NCBI GenBank assembly: GCA_963796455.1
Contig: CAWCLO010000001.1
Location: forward strand, 736,001 to 800,000
Direction: 5' to 3'
Length of the DNA: 64,000 bases
Source: Candidatus Sulfomarinibacteraceae bacterium
Lineage (GTDB): Bacteria > Acidobacteriota > Thermoanaerobaculia > Thermoanaerobaculales > Sulfomarinibacteraceae
How positions within the stretch are numbered: the first letter of the stretch is position 1; the number at the start of each line of letters is the position of its first letter. The translations under genes and the position numbers were made by a program. This document shows positions 4,611 through 19,176 of this stretch, in pieces. The notes below the pieces were generated by a model that worked only from the letters and a program-made list of their open reading frames with translations, searched no databases and was not told where the DNA came from.

Positions 4611-5123
4611 ACCGAGAAGCTCACGCCAGAGAATATCTTCCGGCGAAGCGAAGGTGAAGAAATCAGGTCCGACCTCACCGACCAGAGGTGCGCCAAGCCA
4701 CTCAAAATCCCACCAGTCCTCAACCAATCCCGCCCGGACCGGATTGAGCAGAATATATTTCAGAGTCGCGTGGAGTCCGTCCTCCTTCCGAACAATATGA
4801 TCCCAATAGCCGGAATGCCACACATCGAGGCCAGGTGTCATCAATCGAACGCGACGTGAGGTACGACCCTTGAATCTGTTCATGATCGTGCTGAGTGGGC
4901 GACCCGCGTTGCACAACAAAAGGTGGATGTGGTCCGGCATCATGCAAAATCCCAAAACCGGATGGTCGCCGTGCAGCTTCAGGATTTCGTCACGGGCGGT
5001 TTCGGCGTGCTCCCGGTTCGCCAACCACCGTCCTCGCTTCGCCGTACAAACGGTCACCGAAACGACGTGGTATTGGCCGTCGAATACTTCATCCGGCAGG
5101 TGGTGTTTCTTTCGCCGTTGCAC
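4599..5123 (-). mobile_element. REP-associated tyrosine transposase (RAYT, Y1/HUH family)
   Basis: HUH motif MPDHIH, WxxGYWDHIVR and catalytic YILLNPVRAGL; REPs on both sides. Confidence 0.92.
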
Positions 5124-11432: not shown

Positions 11433-11619
11433 GGCCACACTGTAGCGGAGTTTGATTGACCCGGGTTGCCCAACGGCAACGAAATCGAGTGAATTCAGGA
11501 AGTCTCCTCTCCGCAACGAGGACGACACCCATGGTCTGATCCTCGCCACCGACCGGCCTGTCGCCTTCAGACCGGGGCCGTTTTTTCGTTGGTGTCGTTG
11601 CTACAATGCGCGGTTCAAG

Positions 11620-12375
11620 ATGATCACGATTTCCGATCTGTGCTTCCGCTACCCCGAGGGTGAATTCGAACTCAACGTCCCTTCGCTGGAAATCCATGCC
11701 GGCGAGAAGGTCGCGGTGATCGGTCCATCCGGTTCGGGCAAGACCACCCTCCTCCACCTGATGGCAGGGGTCCGGCTGCCGCAGGAGGGTTCGGTGGTAA
11801 CCGATGAGGTCGAGGTCACCGCCCTTCCCGATGGTGAGCGGCGCGACTTCCGGATTCGGCGGATCGGGATGGTCTTCCAGGAGTTCGAGTTGCTCGAGTA
11901 TCTGACCGTGCTCGACAACATCATCCTCCCCTACCGGATCAACGGCTCGTTGAAGCTCGATCGCTCAGTGCGGGACCGGGCGGCGGCGCTTGCCGATCAG
12001 GTGGGGATCGCCGACAAGCTGAATCGGCTTTCGACCCGGTTGTCGCATGGCGAGAAGCAGCGGGTCGCGGTCTGCAGGGCTCTGGTCGCCGAACCGGTTC
12101 TTCTGCTTGCCGACGAACCCACCGGCAATCTCGATCCGACCAACACGACGAGGGTGCTCGACATCCTGCTCGACGCTGCCGAAGCCACCGGCGCGACCTT
12201 GGTAACGGTCACCCACGACCACGACCTCCTCCCCCGCTTCGACCGCAACCTCGACGTCATGGATCTCATAAGCGTTTCGGAGGAGTCGGACACCTACCCT
12301 TCACCGGCCGCACAAAACGCATATAGCCCGCAGATCACGCAGATTGACGCAGATAGAGGAAAGAAAAATGATTGA
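11620..12375 (+). CDS. ABC transporter ATP-binding protein (LolD/MacB-like)
   Basis: GPSGSGKT, LSHGEKQR, LLADEPTGNLD, VTHD. The C-terminus runs into the adjacent inverted repeat. Confidence 0.93.
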   Translation: MITISDLCFRYPEGEFELNVPSLEIHAGEKVAVIGPSGSGKTTLLHLMAGVRLPQEGSVVTDEVEVTALPDGERRDFRIRRIGMVFQEFELLEYLTVLDNIILPYRINGSLKLDRSVRDRAAALADQVGIADKLNRLSTRLSHGEKQRVAVCRALVAEPVLLLADEPTGNLDPTNTTRVLDILLDAAEATGATLVTVTHDHDLLPRFDRNLDVMDLISVSEESDTYPSPAAQNAYSPQITQIDADRGKKND

Positions 12376-12794
12376 CGACTTTCCTCTCAAGGAAGAGACG
12401 TATCAGATTTTGGGCGCATGCTTCGAGGTTTATAACGAAATGGGTTGTGGGTTTCTTGAACCTGTATACCAAGAGTGTCTGGAAATCGAGTTGCGGACGC
12501 AGGGAATCCCTTTCGCCAGCCAGGTTGTTCTGGAGGTCGATACAAAGGTCGAACGCTGAACAAAAAGTACCAGCCCGATCTCATTTGTTTCGAATCCGTC
12601 ATTGTTGAATTGAAGTCCGTATCAGCTCTCGCTATGGAACATGAGGCCCAGCTCCTCAACTACATGAACGCAGGCTGTTTTGAGGTGGGTTTGCTCGTTA
12701 ATTTCGGTCACTACCCAAAGCTCGAGTACACCAGGCTCGTAAACCAAAATAAAAAACATCTGCGTCAATCTGCGTCATCTGCGGGCAATATGCG
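12318..12794 (+). mobile_element. Putative GxxExxY element 1 (37-bp terminal inverted repeats)
   Basis: 12318-12354 CGCATATAGCCCGCAGATCACGCAGATTGACGCAGAT is the reverse complement of 12758-12794 with 2 mismatches. Confidence 0.7.
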
Positions 12795-12798
12795 ATGA
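12368..12798 (+). CDS. GxxExxY protein (PD-(D/E)XK-like), frameshifted near 12540
   Basis: GFLEPVY in one frame; PDL...IVELK...QLLNY...GLLVNF in the next. Confidence 0.9.
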
Positions 12799-13976
12799 GG
12801 GATGTCCTCTTTCTCGCGTGGCGGTATTTGGCGCATAACCGGGTGAAGACGGCGGTGCTGGTGGGGTCGATCATGTTGATCGTCTATCTGCCGGTGGCGC
12901 TGCGGGTGCTGGTGCAGCAGTCGGCCGAGCAGTTGACATCGCGAGCCGAGGCGACGCCTTTGTTGGTCGGGGCCAAGGGCAGTCCGCTGGAGCTTGCACT
13001 TTCATCCCTCTACTTCGAGTCCGACACCCCCGAACTCACGACCTACGCCGATGCCGGACGCATCGCCGCCACCGGTCTGGCCGACGCCATCCCACTCTAC
13101 GTCCGTTTCAGGGTCCGGCAGCAACCCATCGTCGGCACCTCGCTCGAGTATTTCGACTTCCGCGGCCTGACCTTTGCAGATGGTCGCAAAATGGCGATGT
13201 TGGGAGAGTGCGTGCTCGGTGCCCGAGCCGCCGAGGTGCTCGAGGTGGGCGTCGGCGACACCGTGATCTCGTCGCCCGAAAGCGTCTTCGACATCGCAGG
13301 TGTCTATCCGCTCAAGATGAAGGTGGTCGGTGTGCTCGATCGCACCTACACCGCCGATGATGCGGCGGTCTTTGTAGACCTCAAGACCGCCTGGATCATC
13401 CAGGGGCTGGTCCACGGGCACCAGGACATGGCCGCACCTGAGGCGGCCACCGGCGTACTCTCCCGGGAAGGTGACAAGATCGTCGCCAACGCCTCGGTCA
13501 TCCAGTACACCGAGATCACCGAAGACAATATCGACAGCTTCCACTTCCACGGTTCGACCGCCGGCTATCCGATCTCGGCGGTTATCGCCGTGCCTCACGA
13601 TCAAAAGAGCGGCACCATTCTCATGGGCCGGTTCGAGGCACCCGATGAACCGGCCCAGATTCTCAAACCCACGTCGGTGATCGACGAACTGCTCGGCACC
13701 ATCTTCACGGTGCAGAACTTTGTCGTCGCGGGAATGCTGCTGGTGGGCCTGGCTGCGCTCGCGACCGCTGTTCTGGTTTTCGTTCTTTCGCTGCGTTTGC
13801 GAAAACGCGAGATCGAAACCATGGCCAGGATCGGCGGATCAAAGGCGCGGGTCGCGGGCGTGCTGGTCACGGAAGTGGCGGTCGTGGTTTTGATGAGCGT
13901 GGTCCTCGCAGGGATCCTGACCTTGCTGACAGCAAGGTTCGCACCCGCCGCCGTCCGACTCTTTTTGTTGCAGTGA
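12795..13976 (+). CDS. FtsX/MacB-type ABC permease
   Basis: N-terminal TM, large periplasmic domain, C-terminal TMs with RKREI...IGGS; His motifs HGHQD and FHFHG. Confidence 0.85.
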   Translation: MRDVLFLAWRYLAHNRVKTAVLVGSIMLIVYLPVALRVLVQQSAEQLTSRAEATPLLVGAKGSPLELALSSLYFESDTPELTTYADAGRIAATGLADAIPLYVRFRVRQQPIVGTSLEYFDFRGLTFADGRKMAMLGECVLGARAAEVLEVGVGDTVISSPESVFDIAGVYPLKMKVVGVLDRTYTADDAAVFVDLKTAWIIQGLVHGHQDMAAPEAATGVLSREGDKIVANASVIQYTEITEDNIDSFHFHGSTAGYPISAVIAVPHDQKSGTILMGRFEAPDEPAQILKPTSVIDELLGTIFTVQNFVVAGMLLVGLAALATAVLVFVLSLRLRKREIETMARIGGSKARVAGVLVTEVAVVVLMSVVLAGILTLLTARFAPAAVRLFLLQ

Positions 13977-14077
13977 AGGAGGTGACGTAGAGTGCTGAAG
14001 GGAATGACGATTTCGGATTCGCTCCCCTCGTCGGGTAGACCTTCACAAAAGGTGATGGTCTGTTGAGCGCAACATTA

Positions 14078-14535
14078 TTGAACCGCAAAGAACGCAAAGA
14101 CCGCGAAGAAGGTTTTTAAGGTTGGATATCGAAGACATTGGCGAGCGCGTCGTTGATTCGGCACTCAAAATTCATCGAGCTTTGGGACCCGGCCTTTTGG
14201 AGTCTGCCTACCAGAAGTGTCTTGAATACGAACTTCGAAAGGCCGGATTCCGGGTTCAGTGCGAGGTCGTAATACCCATCGACTACGAAGACATCAAGAT
14301 CGACGCAGGGTACCGAATAGACATGCTGGTTGAGGATTTGGTCCTGATCGAAAACAAAACTGTTGACCAACTCCTGGCAATCCACACGGCTCAAATATTG
14401 ACCTATCTCAAGATGAAAGACCTTCGGCTCGGCTTTCTGATCAACTGGAACGTCAAACTCATCAAAGATGGCATCCACAGGTTCGTCAATAACTTATGAA
14501 AAATCTTTGCGTTCTTTGCGTTCTTTGCGGTTCAA
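14078..14535 (+). mobile_element. Putative GxxExxY element 2 (32-bp terminal inverted repeats)
   Basis: 14078-14109 TTGAACCGCAAAGAACGCAAAGACCGCGAAGA versus 14504-14535, 2 mismatches; 9-bp unit CGCAAAGAA x3. Confidence 0.7.
14122..14499 (+). CDS. GxxExxY protein (PD-(D/E)XK-like), intact
   Basis: LGPGLLESAY, YRIDMLVE..VLIENK, QILTY and GFLINW motifs. Confidence 0.93.
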   Translation: MDIEDIGERVVDSALKIHRALGPGLLESAYQKCLEYELRKAGFRVQCEVVIPIDYEDIKIDAGYRIDMLVEDLVLIENKTVDQLLAIHTAQILTYLKMKDLRLGFLINWNVKLIKDGIHRFVNNL

Positions 14536-14603
14536 AAGAAAATCCCCGGACCATTCAGAATGTTGGTCACAGCAGTGAACGCGCCAAATCGAGGAGGCAC
14601 CGG

Positions 14604-15530
14604 ATGCGCATGTTTTCAGCACTCGTCGTAACAATCGTCATAGGTCTAGTTGGGTGCGGTGGCGGGGGACCGGCGGCGGATCAGCCGACCGAAGCCCCTG
14701 AACCAGTCGACAAACTGATTGTCTACACGGTCAATTATCCACTGGCGTATTTTGCGGAGCGGGTCGGGGGCGATCTGGTGGAGGTTCATTTCCCGGCGCC
14801 CTCGGAGGGAGACCCTGCGATGTGGTCGCCCGACGCGGACACGATCGCCACCTACCAGGTTGCCGATCTGATCCTGGTCAATGGTGCCGGGTACGCCAAA
14901 TGGGTGGAGCGCGCCACTCTGCCGTCGGCGAAGTTGGTCGACACTACGGCTGGTGCTGCGGATCGGCTCCTCGAACTCGAAAGCCAGGTCACCCACAGCC
15001 ATGGGCCCGAGGGGGAGCACGAGCACGCCGGCTGGGCCTTCACCACCTGGATGGACCCGACGATCGCAGTTGAACAGGCCCGCGCAGTTGCCGATGCCAT
15101 CGCCTCGCGTCGTCCCGATCAGGCGTCGGAAATCATGCAACGCTTTGCTGAGCTCGAGAACGACCTGCTCGATCTCGACCGTCGTCTCGAGGCCGCCGCT
15201 CAGTCGATCGGCGACTCGCCACTCGTTTTCTCCCATCCGGTCTACCAGTACCTCATCGCCCGCTACGGTCTCAAAGGTGAAGAGATCCACTGGGAACCCG
15301 ACGTCGTGCCCACCGGTCACGATTGGGAGCATCTCGATGAGCTGCTGGCCGGCCATCCCGCCCAATGGATGGTCTGGGAGGCCGAACCGCTGGACGACTC
15401 TGTGGCCGCTCTCCACGAAAGGGCCATCGACAGCATCGTCTTCGATCCCTGCGGCAACCGACCCGATAACGGCGATTTCATGAGCGTGATGACGGAAAAT
15501 GCCGAAGCGTTGGAGCGCATCGCACAGTAG
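14604..15530 (+). CDS. ZnuA-like metal ABC substrate-binding lipoprotein
   Basis: RBS GAGGAGG, lipobox LVGC, His-rich loop THSHGPEGEHEH, WMDP, SHPVYQY. Confidence 0.88.
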   Translation: MRMFSALVVTIVIGLVGCGGGGPAADQPTEAPEPVDKLIVYTVNYPLAYFAERVGGDLVEVHFPAPSEGDPAMWSPDADTIATYQVADLILVNGAGYAKWVERATLPSAKLVDTTAGAADRLLELESQVTHSHGPEGEHEHAGWAFTTWMDPTIAVEQARAVADAIASRRPDQASEIMQRFAELENDLLDLDRRLEAAAQSIGDSPLVFSHPVYQYLIARYGLKGEEIHWEPDVVPTGHDWEHLDELLAGHPAQWMVWEAEPLDDSVAALHERAIDSIVFDPCGNRPDNGDFMSVMTENAEALERIAQ

Positions 15531-15578
15531 AGGGAGCAGGTTGGCTTCAGCAGACCCGTACGCTCATCCTCCATCTCA

Positions 15579-15653
15579 AAACCGCAGATAGCGCAGAGGG
15601 ACGCTGATAATCAAGGGCCCGCTATCCGCGTTTATCCGCGTGATCTGCGGTTT
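15579..15653. repeat. Gene-less copy of the element-1-type inverted repeat pair
   Basis: AAACCGCAGATAGCGCAGAGGGACGCTGATA ... TATCCGCGTTTATCCGCGTGATCTGCGGTTT, 13-bp spacer. Confidence 0.75.
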
Positions 15654-15678
15654 CTCCGACAGTGGGTTTTCAGGCAGC

Positions 15679-16755
15679 CTACACCCAACGATAGATGATC
15701 GAATTCACATTCATCCCGGCGCCGACGGAGGCGATGATGACGGTGTCTCCAGGCTCGACATTTTGACCGTCCATCTCGCCGCGCGACACCAGATCGATCA
15801 AGGTCGGCACGGTGGCGACCGATGAGTTGCCGAGCCACGAAATGGTCATCGGCATGATCCCGTCGGGGATCTCGCTGACTCCGTAGAGTTTGAAAAGACG
15901 CTTCAAAATAGCTTCGTCCATCTTGGCATTGGCCTGATGAATGAAGAGCTTTTTGACGTGTTCGAGACCGACTCCGGCTTTGTCGAGACTCTTCTTGACG
16001 ACACCCGGCACGTTGGTCAACGCATAGTTGTACAGTTTTCGGCCGAACATCTTGAGGTACAGGGACTCGTCGCTCGACCCCTCTTCGTATGTCTGGCCCA
16101 TCCACATCAGGCTGGCATGCTCGATCGTGTCCGACCGCGCTGCGTGGGACAGGATCCCGATCTCCTCGTCAGTCTCGCGCCCTTCGAGAATGGTAGCGCC
16201 GGCGCCGTCGGAGTAGATCATGCTGTCACGATCGTGGGGGTCGGAGATTCGCGAGAGGGTCTCGCCACCGATGACCAAGGCCCTCTTCGCATCACCTGAG
16301 CGGAGATAATAATCAGCCTGGATCACGCCCTGGACCCAACCGGGGCAACCAAAGGGCAAGTCATACGCGATGCACTCGGGATTCTCGATCTTCAGATTCT
16401 GTTTGACCCTTGCAGCAAGAGTGGGGCAAAAATCGCTGCGACGATTCCCGGCGACCACATCGCCAAAGTTGTGGGCGAAGATGACGTAGTCGAGGCTTTC
16501 GCCGTCAATGCCTGCGGTTTCGATCGCATTCTGAGCGGCGATCGTCCCCAGATCAGAAGCCACCTGGTCGTCCTCGGCGTATCGCCTCTCGCCGATTTCG
16601 GTAATCTCCTGAAACTTGCTGACGGTTTTCTCGTTGTCAGCAAGATCGATGGGTTGTCCGTAATCCATGAAGAACCGGTTTTTCAAGAAATCGCCGGTAG
16701 CGACCTTCTGGGTCGGAATGCATCTTCCTGTTCCGATGATGACGCTGCGTCGCAT
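15679..16755 (-). CDS. fabH: 3-oxoacyl-ACP synthase III
   Basis: Catalytic FGCPG, HQAN and GNSSVA; DGAGA; VGAG. Confidence 0.92.
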   Translation of the reverse strand: MRRSVIIGTGRCIPTQKVATGDFLKNRFFMDYGQPIDLADNEKTVSKFQEITEIGERRYAEDDQVASDLGTIAAQNAIETAGIDGESLDYVIFAHNFGDVVAGNRRSDFCPTLAARVKQNLKIENPECIAYDLPFGCPGWVQGVIQADYYLRSGDAKRALVIGGETLSRISDPHDRDSMIYSDGAGATILEGRETDEEIGILSHAARSDTIEHASLMWMGQTYEEGSSDESLYLKMFGRKLYNYALTNVPGVVKKSLDKAGVGLEHVKKLFIHQANAKMDEAILKRLFKLYGVSEIPDGIMPMTISWLGNSSVATVPTLIDLVSRGEMDGQNVEPGDTVIIASVGAGMNVNSIIYRWV

Positions 16756-18674: not shown

Positions 18675-19176
18675 GGATGCGGGATCACTCTTTTCCAAGA
18701 CGGAGTCTCGGACAGATTTCAGGAACAGCGACAGGGACGGCAAGCAGGGACAGTAGTCAGCATCAGCGTTCAGTCATCGGCGTCAGCGATCAACGGCCGG
18801 GACAGCGAACAGCACTCACTTCATCGGGGCTCCGGCCTTTGTGGTGCGGCCGTCTCGGCCGCACAGTGTGCAGGCGAGACGCCTACACCACAACGGCCGT
18901 TCCTTCCGGTGAACGACCAGGAGGTTGCCACTTCGCCGCATGGACTCCTGACCGCTGCCGCTGAACACTGACCGCTGTCCCTGTTCGCTGTTGCCTGTCG
19001 CTGACGCTGGACACTGTCGCTGCCGCTGCAATTCGGGATCGGGAACGGGTACGTGCCAACCGCGAACCGGATATGCCAAAAACCAACCCGTAAACCGCGT
19101 GTTGTCAGGTGGGTAACTTCAGGTGACGATCTGTTTTGGACAGCAGTGATCCAGCATCTAGCATCGAGCATCGAGC
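18675..19176. repeat. Composite intergenic repeat, copy 1 (nested REP doublet at 18833-18899)
   Basis: Colinear similarity to 25646-26098; imperfect inverted ends. Confidence 0.75.

Follow-up and report, generated by a model that had tools for sequence, protein, structure and literature searches.

Small open reading frames (ORFs) of the four-helix-bundle family TIGR02436 are carried by some 23S rRNA intervening sequences (IVS), where inverted repeats enclose them within the transcript. Ssn nucleases are encoded by small single-domain GIY-YIG genes, and 42% of the homologs carry their own repeat (NTS/SRM) on both sides (Chenal et al. 2025, PMC11893778). The heptamer arrays of Xanthomonas and Nostoc are short-unit tandem repeats enriched between co-oriented genes (PMC4692102). 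The GxxExxY family (TIGR04256; PF13366, PDDEXK_3) is listed with the function "Unknown" and with multiple transfers, and the table passage on the family gives no function, target or flanking repeats (PMC3424549). No account of arms around GxxExxY genes was found in our literature search, whose coverage mostly excluded subscription journals and supplements. Here, we describe two GxxExxY genes of a Candidatus Sulfomarinibacteraceae bacterium, each enclosed by inverted arms of three tandem heptamer words, whose sequence was found to follow that of the protein. The window is the whole stretch of 64,000 nt that was analyzed (contig C1:736001-800000 of the source genome, G000; relatives are labelled G004, G006, etc.).

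Two elements in an ABC operon

Profile searches gave the operon order as ABC ATPase, element 1, MacB/FtsX permease, element 2 and ZnuA-type binding protein. The parts of the two elements are as follows (window positions).

12318..12354, plus strand: element 1 left arm, CGCAGAT x3 at 12329, 12338 and 12348
12368..12798, plus strand: GxxExxY gene 1, branch A, Thr11; profile matches; frameshifted
12758..12794, minus strand: element 1 right arm, inverted; inverted-repeat search
14078..14109, plus strand: element 2 left arm, units CGCAAAG, CGCAAAG and CGCGAAG
14122..14499, plus strand: GxxExxY gene 2, branch B, Gly7, intact, 125 aa, TTG start; TIGR04256/PF13366; PD-(D/E)XK fold
14504..14535, minus strand: element 2 right arm, inverted; inverted-repeat search

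An earlier note on this DNA had described two divergent GxxExxY genes at consecutive junctions, co-oriented with the ABC operon, and both genes indeed matched TIGR04256 and PF13366. Its coordinates and sequence for the arms of element 1 (CGCAGAT x3, spacing 9 then 10) were confirmed; these arms are 37 nt long and 95% complementary, and the right arm abuts the permease ATG at 12795. The positions given for element 2 also held, with 30 of 32 nucleotides matched, but the unit CGCAAAGAA x3 is true of the right arm only, and the third unit of the left arm is CGCGAAG. The arms of the two paralogs had been described as different in sequence; both fit CRCNRAN and are thus variants of one motif, of which three copies make an arm.

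Arms across the GxxExxY family

A strong inverted repeat (score of at least 16) surrounded 34 of 80 gene-2 homologs from several phyla, against 0 of 371 shifted windows. The pooled set comprised 197 loci, 196 with a profile match and 171 with full flanks. When the flanks of the homologs were searched for inverted repeats, as the earlier note had proposed, strict three-unit CRCNRAN arms bracketed the gene in 84 of the 171 full-flank loci (controls 1/511), and 123 loci had such an arm on one side or both (controls 8/511); the pattern was defined from the same pooled loci, and many of them are kin. A detector of tandem 5-mers that presupposed no motif had lower sensitivity (62/171 and 22/39 loci; control 11/511). 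Genes without a strict arm often had variant arms, such as those with CAGGAT or CATGAAG words, and some had none.

Positions 2, 5 and 7 of the word agreed at 0.94–0.96 in the arms of 88 two-arm loci. One explanation for such paired arms, also offered in the earlier note, is that base pairing between them in the RNA of the operon loops out the small gene. This would resemble the ORF-bearing rRNA IVS and serve RNase III-type processing or shielding of the operon. Both elements are predicted to form a single stem around the gene (z −5.95 and −6.26), a fold open to any inverted repeat. In 74 of 120 loci, the longest ORF on each flank was co-oriented, an IVS-type four-helix-bundle gene is the alternative cargo of one junction, and the free position 4 agreed within loci above chance, at 0.41 compared with 0.27 when permuted and 0.22 for the nearest neighbour (46 AAG-type loci). 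However, the arms were on average 85% identical and perfect in 4 of 78 loci, and mismatches compatible with wobble pairing were as frequent as incompatible ones (78 vs. 74; 31 vs. 30 by loci), so that no G·U bias between arms was seen. A stem in RNA would also leave the conservation of the word across phyla, and its link to one residue of the protein, unexplained. We consider this explanation quite unlikely. The two arms, which mismatch without wobble bias, behave as would be expected for two copies of a binding site.

The arm word follows the protein

A FastTree tree was built from 183 near-full proteins, 13 of 196 having been dropped as short or duplicate. Two main branches parted the gene-1-like (A) from the gene-2-like (B) proteins. 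Among typed genes, 89 of 90 in branch B had a word ending in G, and 44 of 45 in branch A had another last base (48 genes were untyped), which means that the rule held for 133 of 135 typed genes. The last base changed three times on the tree, compared with at least 32 times in 200 shuffles. The rule was also kept in two later sets. In the first, 10 genomes yielded 54 loci, of which 48 were examined; 39 genes were new, and all 18 typed ones followed the rule. In the second, 15 genomes yielded 55 loci, with 48 examined and 33 new genes, and all 12 typed ones agreed. Several arm types were observed side by side within single genomes. These sequences indicate that the arm word follows the protein and not the host. 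The deep split between A and B is a single evolutionary event, and the last-base rule alone therefore shows co-inheritance rather than recognition.

The fifth base of the word (A or G) switched about 18 times on the tree. The alignment column best correlated with it was the residue 15 positions before the first Gly of GxGxLE, located in helix 1 of the model. This residue is Thr11 in gene 1, whose word is CGCAGAT, and Gly7 in gene 2, whose word is CGCAAAG. Among 148 scored genes, Thr at this site went with G in 37 of 37 and occurred in 0 of 96 A-type genes, and the link was present in both branches. Path-independent contrasts over all branches (18) gave 13 in the same direction, none in the opposite direction and five ties, and the helix-1 column ranked first of all. 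In a held-out set, for which the prediction was fixed beforehand, Thr went with G in 5 of 5 and Ala or Gly with A in 2 of 2, Ser was found with G once and with A three times, and one gene was unscored. Overall, Thr was paired with G in 42 of 42 genes.

Several points speak against recognition of the word by the protein. The 13:0 contrast count uses unsupported branches and a ranking (T>S>other) that was chosen post hoc; when the contrasts were restricted to starred branches, five pairs were left and the result was not significant, and kin share labels. Ser was ambiguous (12 G and 17 A, in addition to the held-out cases), and three Gly proteins had G. A strict arm was lacking in 21 of 39 and 21 of 33 genes of the two later sets; among the first 21 of these, many had variant arms and some had none. 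The agreement of the free fourth base within loci, above the between-locus level, belongs here as well. The link between residue and base is nevertheless the strongest sign, short of proof, that the protein reads its word, and such reading is in our judgment probable. It fits the suggestion of the earlier note that the protein recognizes its cognate repeats, since arm type co-varies with the protein at the level of both branch and helix-1 residue.

Protein fold and catalytic residues

Gene 2 scored 133 bits against TIGR04256 (cut-off 35), in agreement with Pfam PF13366. The model of its protein had a pLDDT of 96. The best structural match was 3ijm (Z 8.3, root-mean-square deviation 3.2, 99 aligned residues), followed at Z 6–8 by Cas4, Uma2/DUF820, Hjc and restriction enzymes; the top fold matches were PD-(D/E)XK proteins, none of them close. 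A Foldseek search with the model gave no hit at E 0.001, and a sequence search of the PDB returned only T7-type endonuclease I at E 0.6–0.9. Residues D67, E77, K79, Q91 and Y30 were invariant among 58 aligned GxxExxY members, and the QxxxY element resembles motif IV of RecB/Cas4-type nucleases. By predicted fold and by their D...ExK residues, GxxExxY proteins belong to the PD-(D/E)XK superfamily, and a sequence-specific nuclease activity is likely.

Some GxxExxY-like ORFs were longer, divergent or of tandem-domain type and lacked strict arms (G073 C27:69984-70745 and C100:3980-4740; loci L286, L319, L321 and L324). They possibly form a subfamily with another role.

Gene-less arms

The earlier note had described the arms as the genes' own. 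They are not confined to the two genes: G000 contained 296 strict three-unit arms in 113 clusters, compared with none in one block shuffle, including a gene-less hairpin just downstream of the operon.

15579..15653, no strand: gene-less hairpin; element-1-type arms with a 13-nt gap; flanked by the binding-protein gene and, in convergent orientation, a fabH-like gene

Three arm types were abundant in G000 (146, 98 and 51 arms; none in one shuffle), and its three GxxExxY genes matched these three types. Nearly all arms were intergenic, with 10 of 322 within called ORFs, which cover 69% of the genome. Arms without a gene occurred as hairpins or within palindromic mosaics. Gene-less mosaics of 0.5–1.3 kb were seen in G000 at C4:284777-286048, C1:1961-2733 and about 30 similar clusters, composed of the three arm types and other repeats, some of which we take to resemble REP- or SRM-type palindromes. 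The hairpin at 15579-15653 was matched by many contigs of other organisms in sediment sequencing runs.

Outside the genus, five genomes with a gene match (one of them a weak fragment only) held 8–301 NAAG arrays, and 31 genomes without a match held 0–2. The 24 genomes of the sister family together held a single NAAG array, with neither a gene match nor a CRCAGAT array. Two observations run counter to a strict coupling of arms and protein: in 7 of the 24 genus genomes no gene was detected, yet these assemblies, which are 65–95% complete, held 10–157 NAAG arrays, and five genomes without a detected branch-A gene, also from incomplete assemblies, held 30–59 CRCAGAT arrays. Whether the protein drives the spread of the arms is finely balanced, and we lean slightly to the doubtful side.

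These data also bear on a second explanation, in which the arms serve the protein solely as operators or anchors, for self-regulation or chromosome organization, and are spread not by this enzyme but by host recombination or other elements, such as the mosaic repeats. It would account equally well for the link between residue and base. The frequent position of arms in long palindromic mosaics with other kinds of repeats, and the arrays that persist where no gene was detected, agree with it; a weak promoter-like match overlapping the left arm of element 1 points the same way, but is at chance level (one found, 1.3 expected). On the other hand, the catalytic residues are invariant, an operator would not need an inverted copy downstream of the gene, and outside the genus the abundance of arrays tracks the presence of the gene. 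We regard a purely operator-like or anchoring role as unlikely.

Turnover and age of the elements

Empty alleles of the operon in relatives, which the earlier note had suggested as a check, were found at both junctions, as were refilled ones. Slot 1 (the ATPase-permease junction) was occupied in 10 relatives by a gene-1 ortholog (five), by a TIGR02436 four-helix-bundle gene between heptamer arrays (four) or was empty (one). Slot 2 (before the binding-protein gene) held a gene-2 ortholog in two of eight relatives, a mosaic of other repeats in one and nothing in five; one of the two orthologs had an in-frame stop and the other was frameshifted. In the permease tree, G006 was the sister of G018 (support 99), and its slot 1 held a four-helix-bundle cassette behind kept gene-1-type left arms; a cassette replacement in the G006 lineage is therefore likely. 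The intergenic DNA of empty and filled alleles was too diverged to resolve insertion junctions. The unit has been lost or replaced on a genus-scale time, and relocation may be inferred from its many different neighbourhoods.

Gene orthologs showed pN of 0.08–0.27 and pS of 0.65–0.88, and dS was saturated at slot 1. Among the nine genomes with at least two near-full genes, the maximum identity of paralogs was 34–65% in eight and 90% in one. Shared flanking words of at least 5 nt, as a target-site duplication would leave, were found in 32% of 84 loci and in 28% after permutation; the earlier note had likewise seen no such duplication at the two elements. The distance from arm to gene varied by about 100 nt, and the outer boundary was not fixed. 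Searches of viral contigs with these patterns returned only two loci.

The elements could also be autonomous, insertion sequence (IS)-like units, with the arms as terminal repeats and the nuclease as transposase. Slot polymorphism would be expected from such units, close gene-2 homologs had 57 upstream neighbour clusters among 82 loci and 47 downstream among 78, and the 90% paralog pair would fit as well. Against this stand the missing excess of target duplications, the unfixed boundary and variable arm-gene distance, the divergent paralogs, the saturated dS and the scarcity of viral loci, and we hold an IS-like element to be very unlikely. The proposal of the earlier note, a minimal selfish element of 460–480 bp, is not supported in an actively mobile form, given the divergent paralogs, saturated dS, variable distance and absent target duplication. 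By their sequences, the gene-plus-arms units are old residents of operon junctions under purifying selection, not fresh insertions.

A third slot at C1:453903-454360 (L100; orthologs L097, L099, L101, L102, L104, L105, L110, L111, L114, L115 and L120) was located between two co-oriented genes. The GxxExxY genes at this slot belonged to two subclades, depending on the relative; the arms were of CACAGAG type in one subclade and of CACNAAG type in the other, and in several orthologs the left arm was readable as the start of the ORF. At slot 2 of G004 (L215), GGAATTC and GATGCTG heptamer arrays and about five tandem palindromic units of 35 nt were found without a GxxExxY gene.

The 135-aa TIGR02436 gene was amplified in G000, with 83 tblastn hits, 62 of them at 90% identity or more. 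A conserved leader (about 200 nt) and fuzzy inverted arrays of the CAGCGA type accompanied each amplified copy (e.g., C1:128715-129014 and C1:371930-372229). Copy numbers were 72 in G000, 42 in G006, 29 in G004 and 17 in G008, and no copy was found in 5 of 15 genus relatives. On the minus strand of the window, at about 18820-19170, the translation matched the leader and CAGCGA-type arm of this element, probably as a partial copy.

Gene 1 and the operon setting

In the assembly, gene 1 started at ATG 12368 and changed frame near 12538; the 5′ frame stopped at 12557-12559, and the 3′ frame crossed the right arm to the stop TGA at 12796-12798, which overlaps the permease ATG. Its two halves matched positions 1-49 and 50-116 of the TIGR04256 profile with 56 and 74 bits (cut-off 35). 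The family assignment of the gene in element 1 was thus confirmed, but not an intact ORF. Gene 1 was intact in five relatives (G004, G013, G018, G022 and G023). Housekeeping genes near C1:452-455 kb also showed frame changes of G000 relative to its relatives (1 of 21 loci in one set, two queries in another), and the frameshift may for that reason be an assembly indel; it may be either a real break or an assembly error. Contigs of four sequencing runs, from other organisms or relatives, were compared, and the frameshift site was not covered. Apparent skips across element 1 in these contigs proved to be gene-less hairpins with other loop letters and were rejected as excision.

The neighbouring genes of the operon are as follows.

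11620..12375, plus strand: ABC ATPase (LolD/FtsE-like); profile match, sequence
12795..13976, plus strand: ABC permease (MacB_PCD / FtsX); Pfam match
14604..15530, plus strand: ZnuA-type substrate-binding protein; profile matches

The ATPase frame crossed the left arm of element 1 and stopped just within gene 1, 3′ of the ATG at 12368. Such read-through of the arms by the ATPase and gene 1, together with the overlaps, would keep the translation of the operon coupled. An Rfam scan of 11500-16500 gave no match reaching the gathering score, and promoter and terminator scans of the locus were at chance level only. In G006, G018 and G004, an extra secreted gene of 342 aa lay between the permease and the binding protein, a position where G000 has none (L208:3183-4208, L209:3114-4154 and the reverse strand of L215); it had no NCBIfam match. 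A Y1_Tnp (IS200/RAYT-type) match was located on the minus strand at 4752-5087 of the window (C1:740752-741087), about 7 kb upstream of element 1.

A proposed mechanism

Here, we propose an old, slowly relocating system of a nuclease and its cognate repeat, a reading that we prefer with some reserve. The GxxExxY protein would bind the tandem CRCNRAN words of its own arms and cut at or near them. Cleavage at one arm and subsequent repair or recombination involving another would multiply gene-less arms in intergenic DNA, and repair or recombination between arms would occasionally exchange or drop the cargo gene. Such a system would share its logic with Ssn/SRM and RAYT/REP but employ an enzyme of a third class. 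In a fuller and more tentative form of the proposal, helix-1 Thr would select G at position 5 of the word, and the residues that define the two branches would select position 7. One finding sits uneasily with this: the four-helix-bundle genes, which have no nuclease fold, show the same layout of a gene between tandem arms in slot 1, and the layout therefore does not need a nuclease.

If the proposal of a nuclease acting on its cognate words is right, a widespread family without assigned function gains a candidate DNA substrate and a prediction at one residue. It would explain abundant intergenic repeats in Acidobacteriota, Chloroflexota, Planctomycetota, Nitrospirota and deltaproteobacterial lineages. 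As a third convergent system of nuclease plus repeat, it would bear on how REP-like repeats spread, and nucleases of this very small size, with their natural variants in specificity, would make useful tools.

Comparison with known systems

The arms resemble the Xanthomonas and Nostoc arrays as short-unit tandem repeats between co-oriented genes; however, the heptamers of those arrays are G-rich quadruplex-type words, for which the abstract names no cognate enzyme (PMC4692102). Classical IS or miniature inverted-repeat transposable elements differ in having target-site duplications, fixed termini and near-identical gene copies within a genome. As in the ORF-bearing rRNA IVS, a small gene stands within inverted repeats, and a TIGR02436 cassette can fill slot 1 (4 of 10 relatives), but the GxxExxY units lie between protein genes, show no wobble signature and have a word tied to the protein sequence.

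With RAYT/REP/REPIN systems, the GxxExxY system shares a low-copy, long-resident enzyme gene, a high-copy extragenic cognate repeat and mosaics, and the gene-less form of two inverted repeats with a spacer is like a REPIN (PMC5581495). The analogy to RAYT/REP drawn in the earlier note is thus apt. The enzymes, however, are different: RAYT is an HUH Y1 transposase, neither GxxExxY gene of the operon had a Y1_Tnp match, and the six Y1_Tnp matches of G000 were elsewhere. Several GxxExxY types, each tied to a distinct word, also occur within one genome, unlike RAYT/REP (PMC5581495).

Ssn/SRM is similar in that a small nuclease gene has copies of its own repeat to its left and right, here in 84 of 171 loci, and in that the repeat is dispersed outside genes, forms mosaics and varies among homologs with specificity (PMC11893778). 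The SRM is a hairpin by itself, whereas a GxxExxY arm is a tandem of three heptamers that pairs only with the second arm. Cleavage has been demonstrated for Ssn and is a prediction for GxxExxY proteins. Ssn belongs to GIY-YIG (cd10448; PMC11893778), and the two GxxExxY genes matched only TIGR04256 / PF13366, of the PD-(D/E)XK type. As the enzyme tests for both Ssn/SRM and RAYT/REP failed, the GxxExxY system belongs to neither. In its full form, the proposal would set GxxExxY proteins alongside RAYT (HUH) and Ssn (GIY-YIG) as a third, independent repeat-associated nuclease family, with a residue-base code, cutting, spread of arms and swapping of cassettes at operon junctions; we put this form forward only tentatively.

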